A stretch of DNA of 63,740 nt, filler included, from 8 parts of 8 records of this genome joined end to end with filler, not necessarily neighbours in it; one strand, 5' to 3'. Positions 5,561 to 63,740 are shown, counted from the first letter of the whole stretch. Notes: generated from the sequence alone by a model not told the origin. Made by a program: numbers and translations.

Positions 5561-5660
5561 NNNNNNNNNNNNNNNNNNNNNNNNNNNNNNNNNNNNNNNN
5601 NNNNTTAATTAATTAANNNNNNNNNNNNNNNNNNNNNNNNNNNNNNNNNNNNNNNNNNNN
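5561..5660. other. Artificial contig spacer
   Basis: 100-nt N run with central TTAATTAATTAA (stops in all six frames). Confidence 0.98.
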
Positions 5661-15338: not shown

Positions 15339-15438
15339 NNNNNNNNNNNNNNNNNNNNNNNNNNNNNNNNNNNNNNNNNNNNTTAATTAATTAANNNNNN
15401 NNNNNNNNNNNNNNNNNNNNNNNNNNNNNNNNNNNNNN
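15339..15438. other. Artificial contig spacer
   Basis: N run with TTAATTAATTAA. Confidence 0.98.
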
Positions 15439-20790: not shown

Positions 20791-20890
20791 NNNNNNNNNN
20801 NNNNNNNNNNNNNNNNNNNNNNNNNNNNNNNNNNTTAATTAATTAANNNNNNNNNNNNNNNNNNNNNNNNNNNNNNNNNNNNNNNNNNNN
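20791..20890. other. Artificial contig spacer
   Basis: N run with TTAATTAATTAA. Confidence 0.98.
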
Positions 20891-26500: not shown

Positions 26501-26600
26501 NNNNNNNNNNNNNNNNNNNNNNNNNNNNNNNNNNNNNNNNNNNNTTAATTAATTAANNNNNNNNNNNNNNNNNNNNNNNNNNNNNNNNNNNNNNNNNNNN
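26501..26600. other. Artificial contig spacer
   Basis: N run with TTAATTAATTAA. Confidence 0.98.
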
Positions 26601-26787
26601 CCCCCGAAGGCGCGTGTTTTTGCCAAAAAGGCAAAGTTTTCCAGGAATTTGCAACTTTAAATCAGCAAACAATTTCAATGGAACTATTGTCTTGTGTAAT
26701 TCAATAAAAAGTAGATAATTATCATTTGAATATTTGACCAATAGTTTATAATTTTAAAATATAAATTTTTTGTGGGTAAAACAAAAT

Positions 26788-27615
26788 ATGGATAAAGTTG
26801 TCTTATATGGAAAAGGCGGGATTGGAAAATCTACAATCGCGGCGAATGTAAGCGGAATTTTGGGATATCAGGGACGCAAAGTTCTGCACGTCGGTTGCGA
26901 TCCAAAACACGATTCTTCGACATTGCTAATTGGAAAAAGGCGAGTAAAAACAGTTATTAAGGAGCTTTTCTCCACTCCCGGAAATCGAGTTTCAAAAGAA
27001 CAAATAATTATGAAGGGAATTTACGACATCGATTGCATCGAAGCTGGAGGGCCGGAGCCGGGCGTTGGTTGCGGCGGTCGTGGAATAACTCGAATGTTCG
27101 AGGCTTTAACTGACCTTGGAATGTTTGAAGATGAAAAATACGATCACGCAGTTTTCGATGTTTTGGGCGATGTAGTTTGTGGCGGTTTTGCCGCTCCACT
27201 TCGATCCGGCTATGCAGAAAAGATTTTTATCGTAACTTCCGAGGAAATTATGTCGCTTTTTGCCGCAAATAACATTTGCAAGGCGGTTAAAAGATACGAA
27301 TCAAATGGCGTCGTTTTGGGCGGTTTAATCGCGAATATCCGCGATCTTGGTGAAGACGCAACTGTCGTTGAAAAATTTGCCGAAACAATCGGCACGAGAG
27401 TCATGACGGCCTTTGGTCGAGACAAAGTTTTCAGATCGGCGGAAAGGCAGTTAAAGCCGCTTGTGGCGATTGATGAAAACAACAAATTAGTCAATAGATT
27501 CAAAGATTTAGCAGATGACATGCTTGCCTTGAAAATGACTGATTGTGCTTCTCCAAATCCGCTTAGCGAAGATGCTTTTCATGAGTTTGTAGATAAACAT
27601 CACAAGGATTATTAA
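26788..27615 (+). CDS. NifH/BchL-family nitrogenase-like iron protein (group IV-type paralog)
   Basis: YGKGGIGKST, GCDPKHDS, EAGGPEPGVGCGGRG and DVLGDVVCGGFAAP; both [4Fe-4S] Cys ligands present. Confidence 0.93.
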   Translation: MDKVVLYGKGGIGKSTIAANVSGILGYQGRKVLHVGCDPKHDSSTLLIGKRRVKTVIKELFSTPGNRVSKEQIIMKGIYDIDCIEAGGPEPGVGCGGRGITRMFEALTDLGMFEDEKYDHAVFDVLGDVVCGGFAAPLRSGYAEKIFIVTSEEIMSLFAANNICKAVKRYESNGVVLGGLIANIRDLGEDATVVEKFAETIGTRVMTAFGRDKVFRSAERQLKPLVAIDENNKLVNRFKDLADDMLALKMTDCASPNPLSEDAFHEFVDKHHKDY

Positions 27616-29797
27616 TGGCGTTGGTTCGTTTCGATACAAACTCAAAAGCCACGTTTCGATCACTTGAAAAAGTTATCACAGCGGCTTTTTTGAAGTTAAA
27701 CCCCGGAAGTCTGATTAAAATCAAGTGCTTGCCTTTATCAAATGGCACACTCAGAATTCAATTCGATGATGCAATCAATCAAAGTTCCGCAATAGTCGAA
27801 TGGGGCGACATCGACCTGATCTCGGAAAAATCGCCTCGAAATAAATCCGCAGGTCGATTAATTCTCACTAGTGGAGACTCAGAATTTGGCAAAATTGCAC
27901 TAAAATCAGCCGGAGCTGGCTGGCTAATGACCCAAAAGATCCAAGATTCAACCTAATAAAATACCACAATAGAAATCTTCAAAACTTCATTTGTGACGAT
28001 CACGCAATGGATCGAATCATTGCAACAAGACTTGGAGTCGGCACAAGCAATATTTCCGATTTTATTTTTATCGAAGCTCATGAACAAACCGGCCCAAAAT
28101 ACAAGCTGGTGTTTGAAAAAAATGATAAAACTTCAATAAAAACATGTATTTATCCAAATCTGGTGAAAGAATCTGCACTGCTGCAAATCGGTTTGTTTGC
28201 AATAGAATTTGAACTGCATCAAAGCGATGGAACAAGAATCAAACTTGAAAACGAAAATGATATCAATGCTTTAGCAGATGATAATGCCAAACTTGCAATT
28301 GATACAATTTGCTTTTTACTTAATCGCTCGATTCATAAGGAAATGGCATTAAGCATTCCAGATGCTTCTGCATATAATCCTGATGGCGCGGGAGGCGATG
28401 AAGACAACACTTTTGAAGGCAAAGCCATATCAACGACCGATTTTTCGCCGGAAATCGCCTGGAGGCGATTTTTCACGCCTTTTGAAATAGAACGAGATGC
28501 GATTTGCGATTTCAGACCACAAGATAAATCAACAATGGTGCAACACGGAGAACTTGAGTGCAACTTCATTCAGCCAATTTTGAAAGATGCCGTCAGTTTT
28601 CATAAACCATTGTGGCGACTTGTTACCGATTCAGACACCGAAACACATGGATATATGACCTATCTCGACGATAACGACCTGATTATGGGCGAATCGGAAA
28701 AACTAGATGAGCTTCTTTCGAGAGTACGAAAAGCTCACACTGATGATGAATATATCTTTTTGAACGAAACCTGCGTATCAAAAATTATCGGAGAAGATAC
28801 TCCAGGAATTATCAGGCGGCATAAAAACGCCGGTGGTTCCTCGGTGCTTTATCTGGATATTTCCTTGCCTGGTCCAAGTTACATTATTTCCAATTTGCTT
28901 GAACAAATCAAGGATTTGACAATCGAGAAATTTGGCGAAGAAATTCTCACAAACAAAGAACCTCGATCAATTGCATTGATCGGCTATCCTCTGGATCGAT
29001 CCATGCAGGAATTACAGCAGTGGATCGGCAACATGGGAATCAGGAAAAGTGCAGCATTATTGCCACAGTTCGGCATTGATCCAGTCAAACAAGCACTTAG
29101 CTCCGAGCTTATTGTCGCATCTCAAGCAAGAGACTGGAACAAGATTGCCAGAGACATTTTTGTAATTGGCGACAAAAAGCACATTTCGCCGACCATGCCT
29201 TTTGGAATTAAAAACACATATAACTGGATTGTAGAAATTGCTGAAGAACTTGGAATTGACAATATAAAAAGAAAAGTAAAAACAGAAAAAGAAAAAGACT
29301 GGGATTATTTTTCAAATACATACCAGGAAAAACTTTCGGAATGCGGTGTAGCTTTTATCGCTGATATCAATGAGTTAGCTAGAATTATAAATCCTGCTTC
29401 TCTATTTGGAGTTCCTCTTTTATCTTTTCTTGATGAACTTGGTGTAAACATCAGCTTGCTTTTATACTCGAACAATCCGGATCATGATGTCACCAAAGCA
29501 AAACAAATGCTTTCCGAAACAATCGAGAATCAAAACAAGCTATCAATAAACGTTTTCAGTCAAAAAGATGAACTCTTCAACTTGCTAAAATCATCAGACA
29601 ATTTCCAGACTGTTTACTCGCAATATTCCTTTGACAGAAGACTATATCAGGCTGGAAAAACATCTTTCTCGCTTCTTGAAATGGAAAAAGGAATAAAAGG
29701 AGCAGAGAGAACAGCGAAAAAGATTATCTCACTTTGTAAATGGAACATGCCCAAAAAGTGGGGAAAATACATAAGCGCACAAGGTTGGTCGGAATGA
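27615..29797 (+). CDS. Nitrogenase component-1-like subunit with long N-terminal extension (about 727 aa if the frameshift at ~27902-27905 is corrected)
   Basis: DLIMGESEKLDELL, FLNETCVSKIIGED and PFGIKNTYNWIVEIA match the oxidoreductase/nitrogenase fold. The 596-aa frame is open back to 27872, and one added A joins it to the 113-aa ORF. TAATG overlap with the nifH-like stop. Confidence 0.75.
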
Positions 29798-31140
29798 ATA
29801 GTGTAGGCGGAGAATACGGTTTCAGAATGGAGATTCCCTATATGGCGGGAATCTACCTTGCAATAAACGCAATCAAAAACAGCTATCTGGTTGTAGATGG
29901 CCCAATGTGCGCTTTTTATAAAATCGAACAAATTCAGGGAAATCACGACCTTACATCGCAACTGGCAAGATTGGCTCTGCCTCATAGAATTGTTCATACA
30001 GAACTTGCGGTTAATGATGCCGTTATGGGCGAGGAAAAATCGGTTGTAGAAAAACTTGAGGGCGTTGATGGACTGGATGATTGTTCGGCAATATATTTGA
30101 CCGGATTGTCATCAGCAGTTTTAATTGGTCGGGATCAGGAAAGACTCGCGGCAAACTTCAAGAGCCAGCACGATAATCCTGTTTTGCCGATTAAATCTCG
30201 TACCCTTTCCGGTGATTGGCTTGATGGATGGGCGGAAACTCTTGAAATCACTGCGCAAAACATCCCGCTGGTTGAAAAAACAAGCAGTAAAAAAACGAAG
30301 ATTGGAATAGTTGGCAATCTGTTTTTACGAAACGAAGGCGACTCGATCGGCAATGTCAAAGAGCTTGAAGAGATTATAAAGGCTCTGGATGCCGAACCTG
30401 TTTCGATCTGGTTATCAGGACAAAGCTATGATGAACTTGGCGAAATAGGTCAGGCCGATCTTCTTGTTTCACTCCCATACGCAAAAAAAGCGGCTGAAAT
30501 TTTGCAGGAAAGAACAGGAGCGGACTTGATTGAACTCCCCCTGCCCTTTTCATGGCAACAAACAGAAGAATTCATCCTCCTGTTAGCTGAAAAACTGGAT
30601 AAAACAAATAAGGCTAAGACTTATATAAGTCAGGAATTATCACAACTAATTGATATCTCGATGTTTATCAGTGAAGAGCATCTTTTGATGAGTAAATGGA
30701 TGGTTCTCGGCGATCCGCATCATATGCGTGGATGGACGGAAATTGCGGCGAATGCCGGAGCCAAAATCGCCGGTTTGATTTCATCTACCCAACCTCATCA
30801 TATAGGTGGAGAAAAAATTGTATCTTCCGACAATAAAGAACACGAAATAAAATTTGGCAGCAATCCGGACTGGCACAAATTTGCAACGAATTTCATTGAT
30901 GAACGCGCCATTGATTTAGTGATAAGTAATGGATTTGGGTTTAACCTGCTAAACAGTCCTCGTGTCCTTTTCTATGAGTTTGGATATCCATGCTATTCCT
31001 ACCATGTTCCGATCCCGATTCCTGCTTTGGGATTCAAAGGCGAGGCTGTTATTCTTTCGAGAATAGGTGAACTTTTCCACAGAAAAAAGCTGCTCAACGC
31101 AGAAAGAAATTCCAGAAGAAAACCACACAAACATGGTTAA
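29794..31140 (+). CDS. Second nitrogenase component-1-like (NifK/BchB-like) subunit
   Basis: VVDGPMC, HTELAVNDAVMGEEKSV, LIGRD, GNVKELEEIIKALD, LPLPFSWQQTEEFI, EFGYP and LGFKG; ATGA overlap with the preceding stop. Confidence 0.82.
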   Translation: MNSVGGEYGFRMEIPYMAGIYLAINAIKNSYLVVDGPMCAFYKIEQIQGNHDLTSQLARLALPHRIVHTELAVNDAVMGEEKSVVEKLEGVDGLDDCSAIYLTGLSSAVLIGRDQERLAANFKSQHDNPVLPIKSRTLSGDWLDGWAETLEITAQNIPLVEKTSSKKTKIGIVGNLFLRNEGDSIGNVKELEEIIKALDAEPVSIWLSGQSYDELGEIGQADLLVSLPYAKKAAEILQERTGADLIELPLPFSWQQTEEFILLLAEKLDKTNKAKTYISQELSQLIDISMFISEEHLLMSKWMVLGDPHHMRGWTEIAANAGAKIAGLISSTQPHHIGGEKIVSSDNKEHEIKFGSNPDWHKFATNFIDERAIDLVISNGFGFNLLNSPRVLFYEFGYPCYSYHVPIPIPALGFKGEAVILSRIGELFHRKKLLNAERNSRRKPHKHG

Positions 31141-31229: not shown

Positions 31230-32729
31230 TTAAACACTTTCTCCACATGCGACCCACAGCATGCGTTCATCCATATCCTGATCTCTACCTTCGGCAAATT
31301 CCTTGCGAAACTGTTTTACAATACCAAAAAATTCCTTATCCGGAATTGCATCACCTTCGACGATGTATGGCAGGTTAAAAACATCAAGACTTTTATGAGC
31401 TTCTTCTGGAATACCGATTCCAAGAATATCCGAATCCAAATAAACAGCACTGTTTCTTGCAAGTTGAAATCTCTGGATTATTACATCATTGATATACCCT
31501 CGCCATTCATGTAGCCAGTCAAGAGTTTCTATAAAGTAATCAACAGAGAAAGTAGGAAGATCCAGCACAAACAAGTTCACGCCTATTCCTGCATGATTGC
31601 AAGCTATTAGCATATTTTCTGCCTGTTTTATTGTAATACCCTTTTTTACGGCGCGTAAAACGACACTCGAAGCAGACTCAAGCCCGGCAAACAAATATCT
31701 GCAACCTGCTTTGTGTATCAACTCACAGAAAACTTTTGTGTATTCTTTTTCAACTCGACAAAGAGCCGACCACTGGACATTTAAACCCCGATCAAGAATT
31801 TCTATGGATATTGCTTCCATCATTGCCGGACGAGTCGCATGTTCAGCAAAAAAGAAAGAATTAATTCCATGTCGTTTTGATAATTCCTCCATGAAATCAA
31901 CTACTTGTATCGGATCTCTTTCATGTATTTTGCTTTGTTTGACAGAGTGCCTACAAAACGTGCATTTGTCCCAATAGCATCCATAACTAGTTGCAATCGG
32001 CAACATATTTGAAGGATATATACTGACATCAAGGTCTTCAAAATCAGGTATTGGAATAGATCTTATCGGAACACGAGTTCCAACTTTGTTTATCTGTATT
32101 TCATTATCACTATCTCGCCATATCAATGATGGTACATTTTTTAAATCAGTGCCTATCAATGTAGGTTTATTCTCACAGTTCTGTACCAATTTCAGTAATG
32201 GTTTCTCTCCTGCAAAAGGTACTGCTCCATCTATATATTTGATATTGTTAAGGATTTCCGGCAGCATAGTTTCGGCAGCAGTTATCCAGGCACCTCCAAC
32301 CACGACAAAAACATTCGGATCAATCTCTTTAATAATCTTTGCAAGGATTATTGCAGGATAAAATTGCTTTAGGTCAAAAATAGAAATACCAACTATTTTG
32401 GCCGGATTTTTCTTGAACTTCTCGATGAAACTTAATTTATAAAAGGTGTTGTAGATTTGACTTGGCTTTTCTATGTAATTCTTTAATGCTTCGAGACTTT
32501 TGGATCTTTCTTCAATAGCTAATAAAGTTTTTATAAAAGCCGCTTCATTCGATTTCAAAACTTTTGGAAAAAAGTATTGATTGAAAACGACATTTAGATC
32601 CATCTGCCTTGCAGAAAATCCGTTTTTCTTAATATATCCAACCAGTTGAGGCACACCAAGCTCCGGCATCATGATCTCATCATTTGCAGGAGGCATTACC
32701 AACAAAATGGAATTTGTCTCTTTTTCCAC
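31230..32729 (-). CDS. B12-binding-domain radical SAM protein
   Basis: N-terminal LLVMPP...PELGVPQLVGY...VVVGGAW cobalamin-binding domain; SYGCYWDKCTFC CxxxCxxC; AGC...GLESAS..VL..VKKG. Confidence 0.92.
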   Translation of the reverse strand: MEKETNSILLVMPPANDEIMMPELGVPQLVGYIKKNGFSARQMDLNVVFNQYFFPKVLKSNEAAFIKTLLAIEERSKSLEALKNYIEKPSQIYNTFYKLSFIEKFKKNPAKIVGISIFDLKQFYPAIILAKIIKEIDPNVFVVVGGAWITAAETMLPEILNNIKYIDGAVPFAGEKPLLKLVQNCENKPTLIGTDLKNVPSLIWRDSDNEIQINKVGTRVPIRSIPIPDFEDLDVSIYPSNMLPIATSYGCYWDKCTFCRHSVKQSKIHERDPIQVVDFMEELSKRHGINSFFFAEHATRPAMMEAISIEILDRGLNVQWSALCRVEKEYTKVFCELIHKAGCRYLFAGLESASSVVLRAVKKGITIKQAENMLIACNHAGIGVNLFVLDLPTFSVDYFIETLDWLHEWRGYINDVIIQRFQLARNSAVYLDSDILGIGIPEEAHKSLDVFNLPYIVEGDAIPDKEFFGIVKQFRKEFAEGRDQDMDERMLWVACGESV

Positions 32730-32932
32730 TACGAACTCACTTATTTTTTATTAAACTCTATTTAAGTTTCGAGATTGTAGGATGAATTTATAAAGTTTGC
32801 AATGATTTATTACGCAAAAGTAAACCCGTTTTTTCCCATAGGTTTAGTGCCAAAAATTGACGTTTCTAATGCGCTGTGTTATTTTCTTTTCTTTTGAGAT
32901 GATTTCACAATTAGATTCTTTTGGAGGGAAAC

Positions 32933-35533
32933 ATGCCTGAATCAACTAACAGGCCATTTGTAGTTATGAAATTTGGTGGAACCAGCGTTTCCTCGCTGAC
33001 AACATGGGAGAACATTGCCGGCTTGCTGAAAAAGCGAATCGCCGAAGGCTATAAACCGATTATGGTCGCATCAGCCCTTTCCGGCATTTCTAACACGCTT
33101 GAAGATTTGATAAAGAGCGTTTCCACAGGTAAACATGAAGAAATCATCAAACAAATAAAACAGAAGCATATCAAACTAGCCAACGACCTTGGTGTTGATG
33201 GCGAAGAATTATTGAAGGGCTTTTTTACAAGTCTCGAAAGATTGTCTTTAGGTGCATCATTAATTCAGGAAGTAAGCCCAAAACTGCATGCACAGATTAT
33301 GGCGCATGGTGAACTCATGTCCACGACTCTCGGTGCTGCGTATCTTAATAAAAATGATGTTTCCTGCTCATGGGTTGACGCAAGAACCGTTCTTTGTGCA
33401 AGCAATCCAGAAACCGAAGGACAACGCAAGCACTTCATGTCTTCAGCCTGCAATTGCGATCCGGATGATACAACCACAAGCATGCTAAAAGCCAAAGACA
33501 CATCAGTAATACTGACTCAGGGATTTATCGCTAACGACGATCAGGGTGCGACTGTCCTGCTCGGTCGTGGTGGATCTGATACATCAGCTTCATACATCGC
33601 TGCCAAAATAAGTGCAGAAAGATGCGAAATCTGGACTGATGTTCCCGGAATATACACAGCGAATCCCAAACAAATACCTGCCGCAAGACTGCTTAAAAGT
33701 TTGTCATATGACGAGGCTCAGGAAATCACATCGACAGGAGCCAAGGTTCTTCATCCCAGATGCATTCAGCCCGTCATGATGCATGACATTCCGCTGCACG
33801 TTTATTGCACTGATGATCCTGACACAGAAGGCAGCGTCATTTCAAATAACGCTCCGGAAACTATCGCTCAGGTAAAAGCAATTTCAACTAAAACCAACGT
33901 AATGCTGATTTCGATGGAAACTATCAGCATGTGGCAGGAAGTCGGCTTTTTGGCGAAAGTCTTCAACTGCTTCAAAAAGCATGGATTATCTGTCGATCAG
34001 GTTTCGACATCGCAAACAAATGTTTCAGTTACACTCGATGCAGCCGCAAACGTTCTTGCCAAGGAAACGATGGACGCTCTTATGGCAGATTTGAACGAAT
34101 TCTGTAGTGCCGAATCCATCGACGATTGTGCCTTGGTTTCACTTGTCGGCAGAAACATTCGATCCATTCTGCATAAGCTTGGCCCGGCACTGGAAGTTTT
34201 CGGCGAGCAGAAAATCCATCTGGTCACACAAGCTGCGAATGATTTAAACCTTGCTTTTGTCGTCGCCGAAGAAAACGCAGACAGACTTGTCAGAGAATTA
34301 CACGGACTATTGTTCAAGCATCGCAAAGAAGATGACTTGTTCGGCCTGACATGGGAAGAAGTGTTCGTCAAAGAGAAAGAACAGAGAGTAATCGGCAAAA
34401 GCGCATGGTGGAGAGCCAAGCGAGAACAATTGCTGGCCTATATGGACAAAACTCCGGCATTTGTATATGACGAAGAAACACTCCTCGAACAAGTCAGTGA
34501 ACTCAATACACTTAAATCAGTAAACCGATTTTTCTATGCAATGAAGGCGAACAATAATCCTCAAATCCTGAAAATGTTTTACGACTCAGGATTGGGCTTT
34601 GAATGCGTAAGTCCCGGTGAAGTTTCTCATATTTTCGATCTTTTCCCGGAAATCTCACCAGACAGGATTATTTACACACCAAACTTCGCACCGAAATCGG
34701 AATACGAATTCGGTTTTGAAAAAGGCGTTTTTGTAACTCTCGATAATTTGTTCCCGCTTGAAAAATGGCCGGAACTCTTTGCAGGCAAAGAAGTCTTTTT
34801 ACGTCTGGATACAGGTAAAGGCGCGGGACACCACAAATATGTCCATACCGCCGGAGCGCATTCCAAGTTTGGCATTTACCCGGAACAAATGGATTACCTG
34901 CAAGAATTGCTTGAAAAATGCGGAGCCAAAGTAATCGGTCTTCATTCTCATATCGGAAGCGGAATTCTGGCCGCCGGAAAGTGGAAACAAGCAGCAACCT
35001 TCCTTTGTGAAAACTCGGAAAAATTCAAGGATGTCAAATACATCGACCTTGGTGGAGGCTTGGGAATTCCGGAAAAGCCGGGACAAAACAAGCTTGACCT
35101 TGAAGCCGTGGACAAAAATCTGGCAGAAATCAAAAGAGCTTATGCCGATGTAGAGCTATGGATGGAACCGGGACGTTTTCTTGTCGCTACCGCCGGAGTA
35201 TTGCTCGCGCAAGTTACACAAACCAAACAAAAAGGACCGTTCAACTACATTGGTGTAAACAGTGGAATGCATACTCTGATCCGTCCGGCTCTATATGGAG
35301 CGTATCATGAAATCGTCAACATCACGCATTTGGATGAAGATCGCGATATCGAAGCCAATGTCGTCGGTCAAATCTGTGAAACAGGTGACACTCTCGGTTA
35401 TGACAGAAAGCTACCCAAAACAAGCGAAGGCGACTTGATGCTTATCGCAACGGCTGGGGCATACGGTCGTGCTATGAGTTCTTCATACAACATGCGACCA
35501 CCGGCAACAGAATACATACTCAAAAAAGGCTAA
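32933..35533 (+). CDS. Bifunctional aspartate kinase / diaminopimelate decarboxylase (LysC-LysA fusion)
   Basis: MKFGGTSV, LGRGGSDTSA and WTDVPG plus ACT region; then FYAMKANNN, HSKFG, DLGGG, EPGRFLV, GQICETGD and GAYG. Confidence 0.95.
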   Translation: MPESTNRPFVVMKFGGTSVSSLTTWENIAGLLKKRIAEGYKPIMVASALSGISNTLEDLIKSVSTGKHEEIIKQIKQKHIKLANDLGVDGEELLKGFFTSLERLSLGASLIQEVSPKLHAQIMAHGELMSTTLGAAYLNKNDVSCSWVDARTVLCASNPETEGQRKHFMSSACNCDPDDTTTSMLKAKDTSVILTQGFIANDDQGATVLLGRGGSDTSASYIAAKISAERCEIWTDVPGIYTANPKQIPAARLLKSLSYDEAQEITSTGAKVLHPRCIQPVMMHDIPLHVYCTDDPDTEGSVISNNAPETIAQVKAISTKTNVMLISMETISMWQEVGFLAKVFNCFKKHGLSVDQVSTSQTNVSVTLDAAANVLAKETMDALMADLNEFCSAESIDDCALVSLVGRNIRSILHKLGPALEVFGEQKIHLVTQAANDLNLAFVVAEENADRLVRELHGLLFKHRKEDDLFGLTWEEVFVKEKEQRVIGKSAWWRAKREQLLAYMDKTPAFVYDEETLLEQVSELNTLKSVNRFFYAMKANNNPQILKMFYDSGLGFECVSPGEVSHIFDLFPEISPDRIIYTPNFAPKSEYEFGFEKGVFVTLDNLFPLEKWPELFAGKEVFLRLDTGKGAGHHKYVHTAGAHSKFGIYPEQMDYLQELLEKCGAKVIGLHSHIGSGILAAGKWKQAATFLCENSEKFKDVKYIDLGGGLGIPEKPGQNKLDLEAVDKNLAEIKRAYADVELWMEPGRFLVATAGVLLAQVTQTKQKGPFNYIGVNSGMHTLIRPALYGAYHEIVNITHLDEDRDIEANVVGQICETGDTLGYDRKLPKTSEGDLMLIATAGAYGRAMSSSYNMRPPATEYILKKG

Positions 35534-38225: not shown

Positions 38226-38325
38226 NNNNNNNNNNNNNNNNNNNNNNNNNNNNNNNNNNNNNNNNNNNNTTAATTAATTAANNNNNNNNNNNNNNNNNNN
38301 NNNNNNNNNNNNNNNNNNNNNNNNN
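38226..38325. other. Artificial contig spacer
   Basis: N run with TTAATTAATTAA. Confidence 0.98.
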
Positions 38326-43936: not shown

Positions 43937-44036
43937 NNNNNNNNNNNNNNNNNNNNNNNNNNNNNNNNNNNNNNNNNNNNTTAATTAATTAANNNNNNNN
44001 NNNNNNNNNNNNNNNNNNNNNNNNNNNNNNNNNNNN
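43937..44036. other. Artificial contig spacer
   Basis: N run with TTAATTAATTAA. Confidence 0.98.
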
Positions 44037-55154: not shown

Positions 55155-55552
55155 GTGAATCTCCTTATTTATGATTATAACCCCAAGCTCACTATAGTGA
55201 GCCTATCTTTCGCACCTTTATTGATACTTACAATTAACAGAAAATCTCTCGAAAGTCAAAGGAATCCTAACAGTTTTTAGGTATTTTCATATCAGGAACA
55301 AGCTAGACGTATCTTTAAAAACCGCAATAAAATCACCTAATTAGCATGTTTTTGTTAAATCTTGATTGCTAATTACAAGAATATACCCAATACCGGAAAA
55401 AAGTTCAGGTAATTTCAATATTGAACAAACCTTAATATTATTGCGTTTCCATGTTGACGTTTTTGTTTTTGTCATGTAAACAATCCTAGTCTAGTTTTTA
55501 AAGGTATTTTTGTAATACCTTGATTTTTTATTTCACTAAGTACGAGGATTTC

Positions 55553-57829
55553 ATGCAGGAAATCAGTAGAAAAACAATTTCAGCGACCTTGAAAATTAAA
55601 GAAGATATCATCGAAAAAGTTGCTGCGCTTTTTGGCGAAGGCAATACGCTACCCTTTATCGCAAGATACAGAAAAGAACATACAGGTGGCTTGGATGAAT
55701 TGCAACTTCAACACATCAAGGATCAACTTGACTACTTTAAAGAACTTGCTGACAGAAAAACAACTGTTTTAGAAACGATAGAAAAGCAAGGAAAACTCAC
55801 AGAGGAACTAAAGGCAAAAATTGATTCCTGCATTGAAAAATATGAACTTGAAGATCTCTACCTTCCATACAAGCCAAAAAGACGCACAAAAGCACAAGTA
55901 GCAAGAGAGCTTGGTCTTGAACCATTGGCTTTAAGAATTCTCGCCCAGGAAGAAACTGAAGGCCGGGAAATGACTATCGTAGAGGAATTGACAAAAGACT
56001 CGGTAGTGGATGACCCGAATGAGGCTCTAAAAGGAGCTTTGGATATTATTGCTGAAAATATTTGCGAAAATTCGGAAATCAGAAAATCAATCCGTGACCT
56101 TACATGGAGAGAAGGTATTATCAAATCCCGTGCAGTTGGAGATGAAAACGAATCATCAGGTAAATTCAGAGACTACGACCAAAAATCTGAACCAGTCAAG
56201 GAAATGCCATCTCACAGAATTCTGGCTATTTTCCGTGGTAAAAAAGAAAAAGAACTGTCATTCAGAATCTCGGTAGATGAACATGAAGTATATTCCATAC
56301 TTGATGAAGACGTTATAACCAATCCTGATTCTATCTGGAAACGATATATGCTTGAAGCTATCAGAGATTCTTATGAAAGACTGCTAGCACCACAGATGGA
56401 AACTGAAATCAGGCAGGAACTAAAGAAAAAGCAGATGAAGTTGCAACCGAAGTCTTTTCGGAAAACTTGCGGGTTCTTTTGCTTTCTCCACCGCTTCTTG
56501 GAAAATCGGTAATGGCTCTCGATCCCGGACTTCGCACTGGAGTGAAAGTTGCTATCGCTGACAATACCGGAAAATTCTTATCCAACGAAACTGTTTTTCC
56601 GATTCCTCCCAAAAACGATGTAGATGGAACTTTCAAAACTTTCGACAAGCTTATTGAAGCGCACAAAATTGAAGCGATTGCTATTGGTAATGGAACGGGC
56701 GGAAAAGAAACATTCCGTGTAGTTAGAAATTACCTGAAAGAGCGCGGCAAAGCTGATGATATTATCGCTGTAATGGTAAATGAAGCTGGAGCTTCTATTT
56801 ATTCAGCTTCAGAAATTGCACGAAAAGAATTCCCGGATCTGGATCTAACGGTTCGTGGAGCAATTTCCATTGGTAGACGCCTGCAAGATCCACTTGCGGA
56901 ACTTGTGAAAATCGATCCAAAAAGCATTGGGGTTGGACAATACCAACATGATGTCGATCAAAAACTGCTCGCTAAAAAGCTCGATGAAATCGTCGTTTCA
57001 TGCGTTAATAAAGTTGGAGTAAACCTGAATACAGCTTCTGCGCCTCTTTTATCGCGAGTATCAGGAATGACAGCCAAAACAGCTACAAACATTGTTAATT
57101 ACAGAAACGAAAACGGAGCATTCACCAATAGGCAAAGCTTGAACAGTGTTCCGGGAATCGGTGCAAAAACATTCCAGCAATCGGCAGGCTTTCTGCGTGT
57201 AGTTGGCGATGAACCTCTTGATAATTCCGCAGTTCACCCTGAGCGATATGAACTTGTCCGTAAAATGGCGGAAGATATTAATATAGAAATCCAAACACTT
57301 CTAGGTAACAGTGATCTGGTAAAGAAAATTGAAAAAGACAATTACACCAGCGACGAAGTAGGAAGCTTCACATTAAATGATATTATCGAGGAACTCGCTA
57401 AACCGAACCGAGATCCACGAGATGAATTTACTCCTCCGGATTTCAATGATGATATAAATGACATCAAAGATCTGGAAGAAGGCATGGAACTCTCCGGTAT
57501 AGTAACAAACGTAGCTAAATTTGGAGTTTTCGTAGACATCGGTGTACATCAGGATGGCATGATTCATGTATCAGAAATAGACTATCGTTTTATTTCAGAT
57601 CCAGCCGAAGTTCTTAAAGTCGGAGATAAAATAAAAGTCAAGGTTATTGAAATCGATAAAGAGAGAAAAGAATTAGCTTGTCCAGAAAACAGCTTCTATC
57701 TCCACCTCCAAGAAAACCCAAATCGAAAAAAGAGAATCAGCCAAGAGGAAGAAATGATCGCCGCCCAAACCAAAGAAAGCAATCTTTTAAAGGCGACAGA
57801 AAAGGCAATTCTCAAAGAAGTCGAAAAAA
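55553..57829 (+). CDS. tex: Tex transcription accessory protein (S1 domain); two one-base frameshifts; truncated at gap
   Basis: TLPFIARYRKEHTG, LEDLYLPYKPKRRT, DPGLRTG, NEAGASIYSAS, KSIGVGQYQHDV and FGVFVDIGVHQDG. One A is missing at ~56422 and at ~57665. Confidence 0.92.
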
Positions 57830-57929
57830 NNNNNNNNNNNNNNNNNNNNNNNNNNNNNNNNNNNNNNNNNNNNTTAATTAATTAANNNNNNNNNNNNNNN
57901 NNNNNNNNNNNNNNNNNNNNNNNNNNNNN
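57830..57929. other. Artificial contig spacer
   Basis: N run with TTAATTAATTAA. Confidence 0.98.
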
Positions 57930-58678
57930 GGGCTTTAAAAACAGCTGTTGAAGATTTAAAATATAACAAAATAGATGTTCTTGTTACAGGACCATTTAAC
58001 AAGTACAACATTCAATCGAAGGATTTTAATTTTCCGGGACATACAGAATACTTGCAAAGTGAGTTTGCAGCAGACGATGTTTTAATGTTGATGGCATCAG
58101 AATACATGAAGATTGGTGTTGTAACTACACACGCGCCTATTTCACAAGTGGCAAGCTTAATTACAAAAGAAACGGTTGCCAGTAAGATTGATATTTTAAA
58201 TACCACGCTTATTAAAGATTTTGGTATTAGAAAACCCAAGATTGCAGTATTAGGTTTAAATCCGCACGCTGGTGAGAATGGTTTTCTGGGCGATGAAGAA
58301 CAAAAAACAATATTGCCGGCAATTAATGAGGCAAAAGAAAAAGGAATATTAGCACTTGGTCCTTTCCCCGCCGATGGTTTTTTTGCGACCGATAGCTTTA
58401 CAAAATTTGATGGAGTGCTTGCCATGTATCACGATCAAGGATTGATTCCGTTTAAAGCAATTGTTACAGATGGCGGTGTAAATTATTCTGCCGGATTGCC
58501 TATTATTAGAACTTCTCCAGCACATGGAACCGCATACGAAATTGCAGGTAAAAATCTCGCTTCGCCTGATTCTTTTAGAAAAGCGATCTACATGGCTTGC
58601 GACGTGTATGCAAACCGAAATAACATGGAGGAGCTCATGAAAAATCCAATGAAAACATACGATATCTCTAAAATTTAA
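57930..58678 (+). CDS. pdxA: 4-hydroxythreonine-4-phosphate dehydrogenase; 5' truncated
   Basis: FPGHTEYL, GLNPHAGE, PADGFF, MYHDQGL and RTSPAHGTA. Confidence 0.93.
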
Positions 58679-59307: not shown

Positions 59308-62300
59308 TTGAGAAAGAGTTTAAAATACTTAGGATTATCAACGGTTTTTTTCTGTGGATTGTTTGTTATTTGGCAATCGCGGGCCATCGAACCGATCGAC
59401 CTTTCGGATGATTTTTTCAGCAGTTATTTTGGAGATCAACCAGACACCATAATTAATCAAAACGAAGAATTACCATACCCATTAAAAGAAAATACAGGCG
59501 ATCCTTATTCGGATGATAGGAGCACTTCTCCCTTATATTTAAATGATCCTCCAAATCTTGGATCTGATGTTGAATACAACCCCGAAACAGGAGAATACAT
59601 TTACCAAAGAAAAGTTGGAGGTATTGGTATTACACCTCCTGTCAGCATGTCGCTCGACGAATATAGCCAGTATCAATTGGATAAGGCCAAAAGAGATTAC
59701 TGGAGCCAAAAGGCGCGCAGTTCAGAATTTCAGGATTCTCGTTCGTTTGTCCCCAGTTTTCAAATCCGGAGCGAAGCATTTGATAAAGTTTTTGGTAGCA
59801 ACACCATAAATATTACCCCACAAGGTTCTGCGGAGGTAATTTTTGGTTTTACCATGAATCGGATAGATAACCCACAATTATCAGAGCGATTAAGAAGAAC
59901 CCCATCGTTTACATTCAAAGAAAAAATTCAGATGAATGTTACCGGTAGCATCGGTGATAAGATGGAAATGGGGATTAATTATAATACAGAAGCCACATTC
60001 GATTTTGAGAATAAAACCAAGTTGGAATATGCCGGCGATGAAGATGAAATTATTAAAAAGATTGAGGCGGGTAACGTAACATTCCCACTACCAGGTTCTT
60101 TAATTACGGGTAGCCAGAGTTTATTCGGGGTTAAAACAGAATTGCAGTTCGGTAAGTTAAATGTTACCACCGTGCTTTCGCATCAAAAAGGGCAAAGCTC
60201 AGTTATTGAAGTGGAAGGTGGTTCCCAGGTAAGCGAATACGAAGTAACGGTTGATGATTACGATGCCAACAGGCACTTTTTCCTTTCTCATTATTTCAAG
60301 GATAGATATGATGAAGCCATGTCTGGTTTGCCCCTTATTCAATCGAATGTGCAAATTGAAGAAATAGAAGTTTGGGTAACCAATAAAAGCAAAAATTTTG
60401 ATGGGGCAAGAAACATTGTAGCCCTTATGGACTTGGGTGAATATGGTGATAATATTGACAATACAAATATTAAATCAAATAATCAGAATGATGAATTCCC
60501 TAGAAATGAGACGAATGAATTGTACCAAAGTATTTATGAAGACGATGGAATAAGGGATATAGGTACTGCTACGGGTAGGTTACAGGGGTATTTTCTTATG
60601 GAAAATGGCGTTGATTTTGAAAAAATTGAAAATGCCCGTAAACTTACTACACGAGAATATACCTTAAACAGAACGTTGGGTTATATTTCATTAAACACAG
60701 CCCTTAATGCGGACGAAGTGCTTGCAGTTGCCTATCGATATAAATTAGCTGGTGAAAGCAATTACAGGAAAGTTGGTGAATTAACAAACAATGCACCCAG
60801 TGCCCCCCAAACAATTATCGTAAAGCTTCTTAAAGGAACGAATTTATCACCCAAGTTTAAAACCTGGGAACTAATGATGAAAAATATATATGCCATTGGT
60901 GCATACCAGGTTAGTCAACAAGATTTTTCATTAAATATTTTTTACGAGGATGATGAAAACGGGCAGGCTGTAAATTATCTGCCAGGTAGTGGTACAAGCG
61001 ATGAGATTTTACTTCGCGTGTTTGGTTTAGATAAACTCAACCAACAAAGCGATCCGTATCCCGATGGTCTATTTGATTATCTGTCAGGAATAACAATTAT
61101 CCCGTCAAACGGGCGAATAATTTTTCCAACGGTTGAGCCTTTTGGTGAGTCGTTAAAAACTTACCTGGAAAACATCTATGGTCCTTACAATTCAACAAAT
61201 CCCAAAAAAGATTCCATCGATCGGTTTTTGTTTACCGAGCTATATGATTCAACAAAAACAAAAGCCCAACAAATTGCTGAGAAAAATAAATTTATTATTG
61301 CAGGGGAATACAGCGGTTCGTCAGGTTCAGAGATTCAGTTGAATGCGATGAATGTTCCCAGGGGTTCTGTAAAAGTTACGGCTGGTGGTATACAACTTGC
61401 TGAAAACGTAGATTACACAGTTGATTATACCTTAGGACGTGTAAGAATCATAAACTCAGGATTACTTGAAAGTGGAACGCCCATAAGAATATCGCTTGAA
61501 AGCAATACACTTTTTAACCTTCAAAGAAAAACGTTGGTGGGTACGCATCTTAATTACCAGTTTTCTGATGATTTTTATTTAGGTGGTACTGTGCTTCATC
61601 TTAAAGAAACACCACTTACGAAAAAGGTTAATTTCGGTGATGAACCCATTTCAAATACAATTTGGGGATTGAATGGTTCATACCGCACAGAATCACAATT
61701 TATCACATCTTTGGTCGATAAAATTCCATTGATTGAAACTAAAGAAATGTCGAATATCACTGTTGATGGTGAATTTGCCCAGTTAATTCCGGGTTCATCC
61801 AAATCGGTAGGGAAGAGTGGAAGAGCTTATCTCGACGACTTTGAAGGAAGCGAGACTTCTATTGATGTTAAAAATTATTCTGCCTGGGTATTGGCAAGTA
61901 CACCAAGTAGATTTACAGAAGCTAGTAATAGTAGCCTGGACTATGGATTTAATCGTGCTAAGTTAGCCTGGTATGTAATTGATGATTTATTCCAGGAGAA
62001 CACCTCATTAACACCAACTCATATCAAAGATGATGAAGATCAGCAATCAAACCATTTTGTGCGTACTGTCTTAGAACAAGAAATATTTCCGAACAGGGAC
62101 AATGAAAATAATATTCCCAGCCGCTTGGCCATGTTAAATGTTGCTTATTATCCAACTGAAAGAGGGCCTTATAACTATAGGGTAAACGAAGTAAATGAAG
62201 ATGGAACACTTCAAAATCCGGAGGATAAGTGGGGTGGTATCATGCGGGAGGTATTAACAAGCGATTTTGAATCAGCAAACATTGAATTTCTTGAATTCTG

Positions 62301-63740
62301 GATGCTCGATCCTTTTGCTGAAGATTCAACGGCATATTTAAACCCTGAATATTTGGGTGATGATCCTGCATTATATTTTAACTTGGGTAATGTTTCGGAA
62401 GATATATTAAAAGATTCGCGTAAATCGTTTGAAAATGGATTGCCAAGAGATGCAGAACCTGTTGATTACCTGGACACAACAGATTGGGGTTATGTTTCCA
62501 GTAAAATTCAATACCAAAATGCATTTGATACCGATCCGGATTCAAGGGCATTTCAGGATGTTGGTTTAGATGGTATGAATAGTGAGGAGGAAAGAAGCTT
62601 TTTTAGTGATTATCTTCAAGATATCCAGGGAGTGGTTAATAGTGATGCTTACCGAATAATTGAAGCAGACCCTTCGAACGATGATTTTAATTATTACCGG
62701 GATAGCGATTACGATGAAGCCAAAACCAGTATTCTTGACAGGTATAAAAAATATAACAACTACGAACAAAACTCGCGTACTTCTGAACAATCAGATGAAG
62801 AATACCCAACAACAGGTAAAAATTCACCTGATGTTGAAGATATAAACAGGGATAATACACTTAGCGAGACAGAGAGTTATTTTGAGTACAAAGTAAGCTT
62901 ACGGCCGTCAGATCTGGAGACAGTAGGCCAAAATTATATCACCGATATTGTTACCGCTACTCCAAAACTTAAGAATGGTGAAAGAGAAGAAGTCCGTTGG
63001 ATTCAATTTAAAGTTCCTCTTGAAGATTTTCATGAAACACAAGGAGCAATTGAGGATTTTAAGTCAATACGTTTTATGAGGATGTACATAAACGGTGTTG
63101 AAAGAGATGTAATCCTTAGGTTCGCAGAACTTAACTTAATTCGCAGTGAGTGGAGAAAATACGAGCAACCTTTGTATGATGCCATTGAATATGTTGAAGA
63201 CCAGGATGAACGCGGTACATTAGATATTTCGGCTGTAAACATTGAAGAAAATGGCAACAGAGAACCGGTAAATTATGTTCTACCACCGGGTGCTGATAGG
63301 GAAATCGATCCTTCGAACCCGCAAATCAGGCAGCTAAATGAACAGGCTATGGTTCTTAAAGTTACGGATTTGGCTGATGGTGATGCCAGGGCAGCCTATA
63401 AGAATGTAAGTTTAGATCTTCGCCAGTACAAAAAAATGATCATGGATATCCATGCAGAAGCTTTACCAGACGAAGTATTGGAAGATGGTGAACTTACCGC
63501 TTTTATAAGGATTGGTTCCGATTACACCAATAACTTCTACGAATATGAAGTACCGCTGGTAATAACACCAGAAGGAAGGTATAACTCAGGTAATGATGAT
63601 GATAGGTTAGTTGTTTGGCCAGATAGCAATAAAATGGAGATTGAACTGGATGTATTTACTGATGTAAAATTAGCCAGGAATGAAGCAAGACGTGCAGCAA
63701 ACTCAACGATAGAGCTTACTACTATTTATGAAGCTTTCCA
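59308..63740 (+). CDS. sprA: T9SS translocon SprA/Sov; runs off the window end
   Basis: Long open frame, absent from the ORF track because it has no stop: QMNVTGSIGDK, YNTEATFDFENK, GDEDEIIKKIEAGNV, GSLITGSQSLFG, YDANRHFFL and YLDDFEGS; follows ruvA as usual in Bacteroidota. Confidence 0.93.
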   Translation, partial: MRKSLKYLGLSTVFFCGLFVIWQSRAIEPIDLSDDFFSSYFGDQPDTIINQNEELPYPLKENTGDPYSDDRSTSPLYLNDPPNLGSDVEYNPETGEYIYQRKVGGIGITPPVSMSLDEYSQYQLDKAKRDYWSQKARSSEFQDSRSFVPSFQIRSEAFDKVFGSNTINITPQGSAEVIFGFTMNRIDNPQLSERLRRTPSFTFKEKIQMNVTGSIGDKMEMGINYNTEATFDFENKTKLEYAGDEDEIIKKIEAGNVTFPLPGSLITGSQSLFGVKTELQFGKLNVTTVLSHQKGQSSVIEVEGGSQVSEYEVTVDDYDANRHFFLSHYFKDRYDEAMSGLPLIQSNVQIEEIEVWVTNKSKNFDGARNIVALMDLGEYGDNIDNTNIKSNNQNDEFPRNETNELYQSIYEDDGIRDIGTATGRLQGYFLMENGVDFEKIENARKLTTREYTLNRTLGYISLNTALNADEVLAVAYRYKLAGESNYRKVGELTNNAPSAPQTIIVKLLKGTNLSPKFKTWELMMKNIYAIGAYQVSQQDFSLNIFYEDDENGQAVNYLPGSGTSDEILLRVFGLDKLNQQSDPYPDGLFDYLSGITIIPSNGRIIFPTVEPFGESLKTYLENIYGPYNSTNPKKDSIDRFLFTELYDSTKTKAQQIAEKNKFIIAGEYSGSSGSEIQLNAMNVPRGSVKVTAGGIQLAENVDYTVDYTLGRVRIINSGLLESGTPIRISLESNTLFNLQRKTLVGTHLNYQFSDDFYLGGTVLHLKETPLTKKVNFGDEPISNTIWGLNGSYRTESQFITSLVDKIPLIETKEMSNITVDGEFAQLIPGSSKSVGKSGRAYLDDFEGSETSIDVKNYSAWVLASTPSRFTEASNSSLDYGFNRAKLAWYVIDDLFQENTSLTPTHIKDDEDQQSNHFVRTVLEQEIFPNRDNENNIPSRLAMLNVAYYPTERGPYNYRVNEVNEDGTLQNPEDKWGGIMREVLTSDFESANIEFLEFWMLDPFAEDSTAYLNPEYLGDDPALYFNLGNVSEDILKDSRKSFENGLPRDAEPVDYLDTTDWGYVSSKIQYQNAFDTDPDSRAFQDVGLDGMNSEEERSFFSDYLQDIQGVVNSDAYRIIEADPSNDDFNYYRDSDYDEAKTSILDRYKKYNNYEQNSRTSEQSDEEYPTTGKNSPDVEDINRDNTLSETESYFEYKVSLRPSDLETVGQNYITDIVTATPKLKNGEREEVRWIQFKVPLEDFHETQGAIEDFKSIRFMRMYINGVERDVILRFAELNLIRSEWRKYEQPLYDAIEYVEDQDERGTLDISAVNIEENGNREPVNYVLPPGADREIDPSNPQIRQLNEQAMVLKVTDLADGDARAAYKNVSLDLRQYKKMIMDIHAEALPDEVLEDGELTAFIRIGSDYTNNFYEYEVPLVITPEGRYNSGNDDDRLVVWPDSNKMEIELDVFTDVKLARNEARRAANSTIELTTIYEAF

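Follow-up and report, generated by a model that had tools for sequence, protein, structure and literature searches.

What kind of iron-sulfur (Fe-S) cluster can be held by a pair of proteins that resemble the two catalytic subunits of nitrogenase but lack many of the residues by which nitrogenase binds its clusters? The question is raised by a four-gene operon at 26770-31140 in a stretch of 63,740 nucleotides (the window), in which all genes are located on the plus strand and code for a NifH-like ATPase (NflH), a 113-aa open reading frame (ORF), a NifD/NifE-like protein (NflD) and a NifK/NifN-like protein (NflK). The window is an artificial concatenation of eight contigs, and the operon is located on the contig at 26601-38225, which is only 11.6 kb in size. 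A preliminary description of the segment 28500-30140 had pointed to an atypical set of cysteines in NflD and NflK and had suggested an inter-subunit [4Fe-4S] cluster like that of DPOR and COR. We consider it probable that the operon encodes a Group VI-type nitrogenase-like (NFL) two-component reductase with one small interface Fe-S cluster on three cysteines, and with no site for a P-cluster, an iron-molybdenum cofactor (FeMo-co) or an L-cluster.

NflD (28007-29797; 596 aa) is the alpha-type (NifD/NifE-like) subunit, although the Pfam domain Oxidored_nitro matched residues 214-508 only (8e-26). In the AlphaFold2 (AF2) model of the protein (mean confidence, pLDDT, 83.7), a beta-rich N-terminal domain (residues 1-108) is followed by a disordered linker (110-141) and a nitrogenase-fold core (149-590), and the best Foldseek matches were NifD, NifE and ChlB at 13-16% identity. 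NflK (29740-31140; 466-aa ORF) is the beta-type (NifK/NifN-like) subunit, with a match to Oxidored_nitro that spans residues 36-444 (2e-40) and an AF2 model (pLDDT 88.3) that was most similar to NifN and NifK (TM 0.72-0.75, 15-18% identity). As listed, the ORF of NflK shares 58 nt with that of NflD, and a pLDDT of less than 50 was obtained for residues 1-23 of NflK. Translation probably starts downstream of 29740; Met19 at 29794 may be the start codon and would shorten the overlap with the NflD stop.

Translation confirmed all of the motifs quoted in the preliminary description, each inside 28500-30140. Single-sequence searches of the PDB were too weak for residue mapping and family profiles were used instead, with annotated NifD, NifK, NifE, NifN, BchN and BchB proteins from plasmid records as references and with NifD and NifK residues numbered as in North and Shafaat (2026, PMC13474568). 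In hhalign alignments of the NflD family to NifD and NifE, HGELEC coincided with HGPVGC, and the cysteine of ETC with that of TC..IGDD, in agreement with the earlier suggestion that the first subunit keeps both of these cysteines. Cys185, in VQHGELEC (residues 178-185, nt 28538-28561), is at the position of NifD Cys88 and is encoded together with the preceding Glu184 at 28556-28561, while Cys256 (28772-28774), in NETCVSKIIGED (residues 253-264, nt 28763-28798), is at the position of NifD Cys154, a placement also backed by hidden Markov model alignments to MarD and NifE. The residue before the corresponding cysteine is Gly in NifD, NifE, NifK and NifN and Thr in BchN, and Glu184 is specific to the family. 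At about the place of NifD Cys62, the N-terminus of helix 158-167 carries Glu160 (28484-28486); this placement was made by spacing and the AF2 helix and not by profile alignment, and MAFFT left the Cys62 region of the D proteins gapped.

The second subunit had been described as retaining only the middle of the three NifK cysteines, and this is what we found. Cys57 (29908-29910), in LVVDGPMC (residues 50-57), is at the middle (NifK Cys95) position, and there is no cysteine at the first (NifK Cys70) position, occupied by Pro33 (29836-29838; in EIPYMAG, residues 31-37), or at the third (NifK Cys153) position, occupied by Ser124 (30109-30111; in IYLTGLSSAVLIGRD, residues 118-132, LTGLSSAVLIGRD). 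Profile-profile alignment matched the column of Ser124, for which the family consensus is Pro, to the cysteine of TTC in NifK and VnfK. The supports for Pro33 and Cys57 are weaker, namely the Pfam coverage from residue 36, the spacing of 24 residues from Pro33 to Cys57 versus 25 from Cys70 to Cys95 in the NifK reference, the AF2 succession of a strand and a helix, and the interface model described below. The helix that follows Cys57 contains the motif QGNHD (residues 66-70, nt 29935-29949), which is a signature of the family.

To place these residues in a broader context, we surveyed the family in public genomes. A scan of 185,579 species genomes for NflK motifs yielded 63 loci, nearly all in metagenome-assembled genomes (MAGs) of Myxococcota, with an NflD homologue directly upstream of NflK in 61 loci and a NifH-like gene in 44. 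The NflK alignment contained 56 of 57 database relatives plus the window protein (n=57), the 24%-identical P0058 being left out. Cys57 was a cysteine in 57/57 sequences and formed the only Cys column above 65%, with at most 36/57 in the next, while the columns of Pro33 and Ser124 contained T26, S14, P13 and G3, and P50, S6 and A1, respectively. In the QGNHD motif, Q66, N68 and H69 were present in 57/57 sequences and D70 in 55/57; the residue before Cys57 was Asp in 50/57, and is Met in the window protein.

A word-index search with NflD gave a single relative, and the family was recovered through the neighbours of NflK relatives and by an exhaustive profile search, which yielded 588 representatives (clusters at 50% identity) at E<=1e-30. 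Cys185 and Cys256 were both conserved in 63/63 rows of the NflD alignment. Residue counts from the best 150 of the 588 representatives gave Cys in 142 (gap 7, Ser 1) for Cys185, Cys in 147 (gap 2, Glu 1) for Cys256 and Glu in 140 (gap 7, Asp 2, His 1) for Glu184. As judged from these alignments, the three-cysteine pattern is a trait of the family and beyond chance, since it is conserved across its members. Several of the NflD-profile representatives were 990-1160 aa long and matched over part of their length, and may represent fusions, or ORFs called too long in sequences of high G+C. Some of the Myxococcota contigs, which include L040, L044 and L047, hold two complete nflH-nflD-nflK sets within 10 kb.

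Could these proteins nevertheless bind the clusters of nitrogenase? Only three of the six canonical cysteine positions are filled in the alignments to NifDK-type references and the cysteines are therefore too few for an [8Fe-7S] P-cluster, as had been proposed. Nor were ligands of the FeMo-co recovered, again as described before: the column of NifD Cys275 contains Gln373 in NflD and Pro in the family (hhalign against NifD), the loop of NifD His442 is shorter in NflD, by a gap of 4 residues (hhalign against NifE), and no conserved His follows residue 180 of NflD in the family alignment, where no His column reaches 90%. Going by sequence, the FeMo-co ligands are absent from NflD and NflK. The idea that NflDK is a genuine nitrogenase, or a protein of the maturase type, and binds a P-cluster-like [8Fe-7S] centre via unconventional ligands draws on the PDB matches of the NflD family profile, which were best for MarD (1e-29) and NifE (1e-21 to 9e-28), proteins that carry or handle large clusters, followed by NifD (1e-17). 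Set against these matches are the missing Cys275 and His442 ligands and the three of six cysteine positions (the family consensus in K is Pro for the third and Thr, Ser or Pro for the first), as well as scores far under the NCBIfam cut-offs for nifD (17 bits vs 654) and nifK (34.5 vs 427), and we consider this explanation extremely improbable.

We also modelled the complex of NflD (residues 142-596) and NflK with a [4Fe-4S] cluster included, and obtained an ipSAE score of 0.77 compared to 0.01 for the best control. Of 78 solved complexes, 51 reached the mark set for this score, as did 2 of 108 mismatched pairs, and the runs showed a contact agreement of at least 59% with a partner pLDDT of at least 84; because complexes of the NifDK type are already solved, a pass indicates likeness to solved complexes and not binding. 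The modelled interface consisted of residues 182-193 (including Cys185), 256-257 (Cys256) and 540-545 in NflD, and of residues 31-36 (Pro33), 55, 57 (Cys57), 60-68 and 123-125 (Ser124) in NflK. All three retained cysteines, Cys185, Cys256 and Cys57, thus co-locate at the D-K interface in the model. In combination, the shortage of P-cluster cysteines, the lack of FeMo-co ligands and the modelled co-location make one inter-subunit cluster of the [4Fe-4S] type the best reading. To this extent the comparison to DPOR and COR was to the point, but the ligand pattern is 2+1 and not the three Cys plus Asp of DPOR, and two residues had been overlooked, the Glu184 that adjoins Cys185 and a nearly invariant C-terminal cysteine in NflD, Cys577.

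The electrons for such a cluster would be supplied by NflH (26770-27615), a 281-aa ORF with a probable start at the ATG at 26788 and a match to the Pfam domain Fer4_NifH (2.3e-80). Its translation contains the P-loop GKGGIGKST and the cluster cysteines Cys101 (GVGCGGRG) and Cys137 (DVVCGGFA), and since these are kept, an ATP-driven delivery of electrons is a natural assumption, as across the superfamily. NflH scored under every NCBIfam cut-off, including those for nifH (281 bits vs 394), CfbC (279 vs 402) and BchL (196 vs 345). Its nearest relatives are proteins of Myxococcota (P0059, 71% identity), and a NifH-like protein of Elusimicrobia (P0163/P0338, 49% identity) was among the best 120 matches. 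A further NifH-like relative, P0119, bears the name of an isolate, Nannocystaceae bacterium ST9.

From these data we infer the type of the cluster, its fourth ligand, the flow of electrons and the function. NflH would be a homodimeric, NifH-like ATPase with a bridging [4Fe-4S] cluster of its own, and would pass electrons on to NflD-NflK. Each D-K pair would hold one small Fe-S cluster, most likely a [4Fe-4S], at the place of the P-cluster in nitrogenase, with Cys185 and Cys256 of NflD and Cys57 of NflK as predicted ligands, and neither a P-cluster nor a site for FeMo-co or an L-cluster is expected in NflDK. The fourth iron would be bound by a carboxylate or be free for water or a substrate. 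Gene contexts in related genomes suggest that the substrate may be a molecule that is also handled by radical SAM enzymes, with or without B12.

Which residue could bind the fourth iron? The best carboxylate candidate is Glu184 of NflD, which is near-universal and family-specific and which, in the model, contacts residues 33-35, 123-124 and 155 of NflK and seems to fill the space of the missing NflK cysteines. The second candidate is Glu160, at the former place of Cys62, which was Glu in 38/38 sequences of an alignment of the close NflD subfamily and in 97 of the 150 representatives (A 12, gap 10, D 6, V 5, Q 4 and others). Alternatively, Cys577 (29735-29737) could fold back as a fourth thiolate to give an all-Cys [4Fe-4S] cluster with three Cys on D and one on K, which is the stoichiometry of DPOR. 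The residue is located in the C-terminal helix 562-578, which was confidently modelled (pLDDT about 97), and its conservation (36/38 in the close subfamily, 59/63 in the larger alignment and 123/150 among the representatives, the others having A 16, S 3, gap 3, G 2 and further residues) is unusually high for a cysteine without a function. On the other hand, Cys577 was not named at the modelled interface, although residues 540-545 were (the same holds for Glu160, and an unnamed residue counts as uncertain only), so that despite its conservation it seems to be remote from the interface in the model. Moreover, hhalign placed it on an Ile, no known ligand, where the last helix of NifE ends, and the 16 representatives with Ala at this position have retained Cys185 and Cys256. 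We therefore regard a fourth thiolate from Cys577 as quite improbable.

Another explanation is that the interface cluster is the catalytic centre rather than a relay, as a [3Fe-4S] or other sub-stoichiometric cluster, or as a site-differentiated [4Fe-4S] with a free iron that binds the substrate. Exactly three cysteines are universally conserved across the two subunits, no second cofactor site was detectable, and invariant polar residues are found at the same interface (H180, E184, D543 and R545 in NflD; Q66, N68 and H69 in NflK). Yet, the characterised [4Fe-4S] relatives, DPOR and CfbD, have four protein ligands (PMC13474568), and the near-invariant Glu184 is available as a fourth, which makes a cluster of this kind unlikely in our opinion, if less so than a thiolate from Cys577. 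A more speculative scenario, which we would put forward as a doubtful one, is a site-differentiated [4Fe-4S] cluster on three Cys, whose fourth iron is coordinated by the carboxylate of Glu184 and the substrate or switches between the two. Within the nitrogenase fold, the former P-cluster site would then be catalytic in the manner of aconitase or IspH, and the substrate would be a metabolite modified by radical SAM enzymes and not a tetrapyrrole, while the N-terminal domain of NflD and the 113-aa piece would bind the substrate or a carrier.

Several observations weigh against the preferred reading of one small cluster on three cysteines in a Group VI-type reductase. The complex model speaks to the D-K interface and not to the cluster itself, the position of the [4Fe-4S] and the Cys-Cys and S-Fe distances being outside its output. 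For Pro33 and Cys57, hhalign failed: the references for the NflK family were NifK, BchB and a three-sequence NifK/NifN alignment, and all three alignments began at profile column 93 or later, so that the N-terminal 90 residues were never reached. MAFFT, when applied to the N-terminal region together with the references, misplaced the HGSQGC of NifK. For the equivalences to Cys62, Cys70 and Cys95, the supports are hence the spacing, the secondary structure and the modelled interface. Glu184 directly precedes the ligand Cys185, which would be an unusual geometry for a second ligand. Because neither Glu160 (97/150) nor Cys577 (123/150) is universal, and both are missing in four of the 150 representatives, the fourth ligand is left without a fully conserved Cys candidate. 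In a 34-row tree of NifH proteins, the branches that lead to two true NifH and to BchL had lengths of 2.0 and 3.3, respectively, but the backbone was not resolved and the tree contained no labelled Group VI reference. Finally, no NifB or NifEN was found among the 31 larger ORFs of the concatenated window, a result that cannot be extended to the genome as a whole since the operon contig is only 11.6 kb.

How does this system compare to those already described? Group VI nitrogenase paralogues were defined in groundwater Elusimicrobia, and homologues were reported from the genomes of two Gracilibacteria and fourteen Myxococcales (Meheust 2020, bioRxiv 10.1101/765248). According to the available parts of that study, many radical SAM genes, some with B12-binding domains, are adjacent to the Group VI loci, and the D and K proteins lack some of the P-cluster cysteine motifs. 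In a later review (North and Shafaat 2026, PMC13474568), Group VI is described as retaining no more than four of the six P-cluster cysteines and as lacking NifB as well as Cys275 and His442, and a [4Fe-4S] or similar cluster is considered likely; a substrate, product, cluster or structure is not known for the group. No other branch of the nitrogenase superfamily is as poorly understood. The operon resembles this group in having a NifH-like protein with the P-loop and both cluster cysteines next to very divergent D and K proteins, in the number of P-cluster positions filled (three of six here), and in the lack of equivalents to Cys275 and His442. Other similarities are the adjacent radical SAM genes, some of them B12-binding, here and in the related loci, and the relatives, the great majority of which are MAGs of Myxococcota, with a NifH-like protein from Elusimicrobia near NflH. 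With identities of 13-18% (Foldseek) and 15-19% (hhalign), NflD and NflK show the high divergence from NifD and NifK that is reported for the group (about 22-25% identity). As differences, there is a single radical SAM gene on the 11.6-kb contig, and with a G+C content of about 40% the organism need not be a myxobacterium. Membership in the Group VI clade is probable.

On the operon proteins, every NCBIfam model for nitrogenase, DPOR, COR and CfbCD scored far under its cut-off. The homodimeric CfbD binds an inter-subunit [4Fe-4S] cluster in a symmetric 2+2 site made up of Cys only, in which Cys39 and Cys94 correspond to NifD Cys88 and Cys154 (PMC13474568). The cysteine pair of NflD is exactly that of CfbD, and NflH scores near-equally on the CfbC and nifH models, but in NflDK a distinct NflK, modelled to bind NflD, contributes one Cys, and the CfbD-type model methan_mark_13 gave 25.6 bits vs 268. 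In DPOR (BchNB/ChlNB, Group V), one [4Fe-4S] is bound by three Cys on BchN, at positions 62, 88 and 154, and by an Asp of BchB that takes the place of a NifK Cys (PMC13474568). A site with three Cys plus Glu in NflDK would work likewise, whereas the cysteines are split 2+1, the candidate carboxylates are on D and the middle position of NflK is a Cys and not an Asp; the scores were 33 bits vs 420 for BchN and 19 vs 490 for BchB.

Reduced sets of cysteines are also found in isethionate reductase (ISR; IsrDK, Group IV-F), which has the NifD Cys88 position and all three NifK positions (Cys70, Cys95 and Cys153) in a 1+3 pattern, a predicted [4Fe-4S] cluster and an associated radical SAM protein (PMC13474568). 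NflDK shares the small cysteine set with a predicted [4Fe-4S] and the association to radical SAM genes, but differs in that NflK is without the first and third Cys and that the Cys154 position is an additional Cys in NflD. Methylthio-alkane reductase (MAR; MarDK, Group IV-C; PDB 9d9u, 9fmg) contains a P-cluster and, with Cys270 and His429 as ligands, an L-like cluster (PMC13474568). Although it provided the best match in solved structures to the NflD family profile (1e-29), neither of its ligand sets is found in NflDK and the match to 9d9u_A spans profile positions 241-473 only. The nitrogenases NifDK, VnfDK and AnfDK are set apart by the three P-cluster cysteines and the Cys275 and His442 ligands that NflDK does not have. 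As far as the aligned sequences tell, the 2+1 pattern of cysteine ligands is different from the patterns in all of the characterised groups, that is DPOR, CfbD, ISR and MAR.

The 113-aa ORF (27615-27956), the start of which overlaps the nflH stop, had no match in Pfam or NCBIfam. It is similar to residues 13-102 of P0001, the 711-aa NflD of the closest relative (28% identity, E 3e-9), in which the counterpart of the ORF is fused to NflD as its N-terminal ~100 residues. The ORF would thus appear to be either a detached N-terminal module or one part of a split gene. The conserved N-terminal domain of NflD itself (residues 1-108, 28007-28330) was covered by most of the 150 representatives in the profile search; it gave no match in Pfam and no usable match in an atlas search, and the reference alignments do not span the domain or the linker.

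Convergent with the operon is a gene on the minus strand for a B12-binding radical SAM protein (31230-32729; Pfam Radical_SAM 1e-10, B12-binding 8e-5). The best NCBIfam model for this protein was that of a RiPP-type radical SAM C-methyltransferase, at 107 bits and under the cut-off of 282. In the relatives, 123 ORFs with a CxxxCxxC motif were spread over 48 of the 63 loci; Pfam was run on 43 of these and identified Radical_SAM in 42, of which 11 also had a B12-binding domain. The same contig codes for an 870-aa fusion protein (32921-35533, plus strand) of an aspartate-kinase-type domain (AA_kinase and ACT) and a pyridoxal phosphate-dependent decarboxylase of the diaminopimelate/ornithine type. 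An Rfam scan of the whole window gave no match, including none to a cobalamin riboswitch.

The eight contigs of the window are joined by seven linkers of the form N44-TTAATTAATTAA-N44 (5561-5660, 15339-15438, 20791-20890, 26501-26600, 38226-38325, 43937-44036 and 57830-57929), so that neighbourhood across a linker is meaningless. For this reason the ADH gene and the gene for a 619-aa lipoprotein upstream of the operon, which are on another contig beyond a linker, were ruled out as context. The source is probably a binned genome, with G+C contents that range from 0.34 to 0.52 between the pieces. On the other contigs, a Tex-like protein (55520-57885, plus strand) is divided between two ORFs that overlap (55520-56512 and 56467-57885), likely by a frameshift, and PdxA (58052-58678), which matched profile positions 107-286 only, starts just past a linker and is likely truncated by the contig end. 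A large SprA-type protein of type IX secretion or gliding (59308-63738, plus strand) hints that the bin is mixed or is not from a typical myxobacterium.

Taken as a whole, the interpretation given in the preliminary description was largely right, but at the level of Group VI it was already in print. In the accessible text of the two papers (bioRxiv 10.1101/765248, PMC13474568) we did not find the exact 2+1 ligand pattern, the Glu-Cys dyad, Cys577 or the N-terminal domain of NflD with its detached 113-aa piece, and a literature search for later work on Group VI gave nothing beyond the review PMC13474568 and a paper on MCR activation. What is added here is a ligand set at the level of residues that extends across the family, the Glu-Cys dyad, Cys577, the NflD N-terminal domain and the large size of the family, which comprises 588 clusters (50% identity, E<=1e-30). 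The set consists of the Cys88 and Cys154 positions in NflD and the Cys95 position in NflK, along with the near-invariant Glu-Cys dyad and the conserved C-terminal Cys of NflD. It names the residues to mutate and predicts about 4 Fe per DK pair, with a mixed or incomplete thiolate ligation. For the annotation of genomes, it means that matches to nifH, nifD and nifK of this kind are not evidence of nitrogen fixation.

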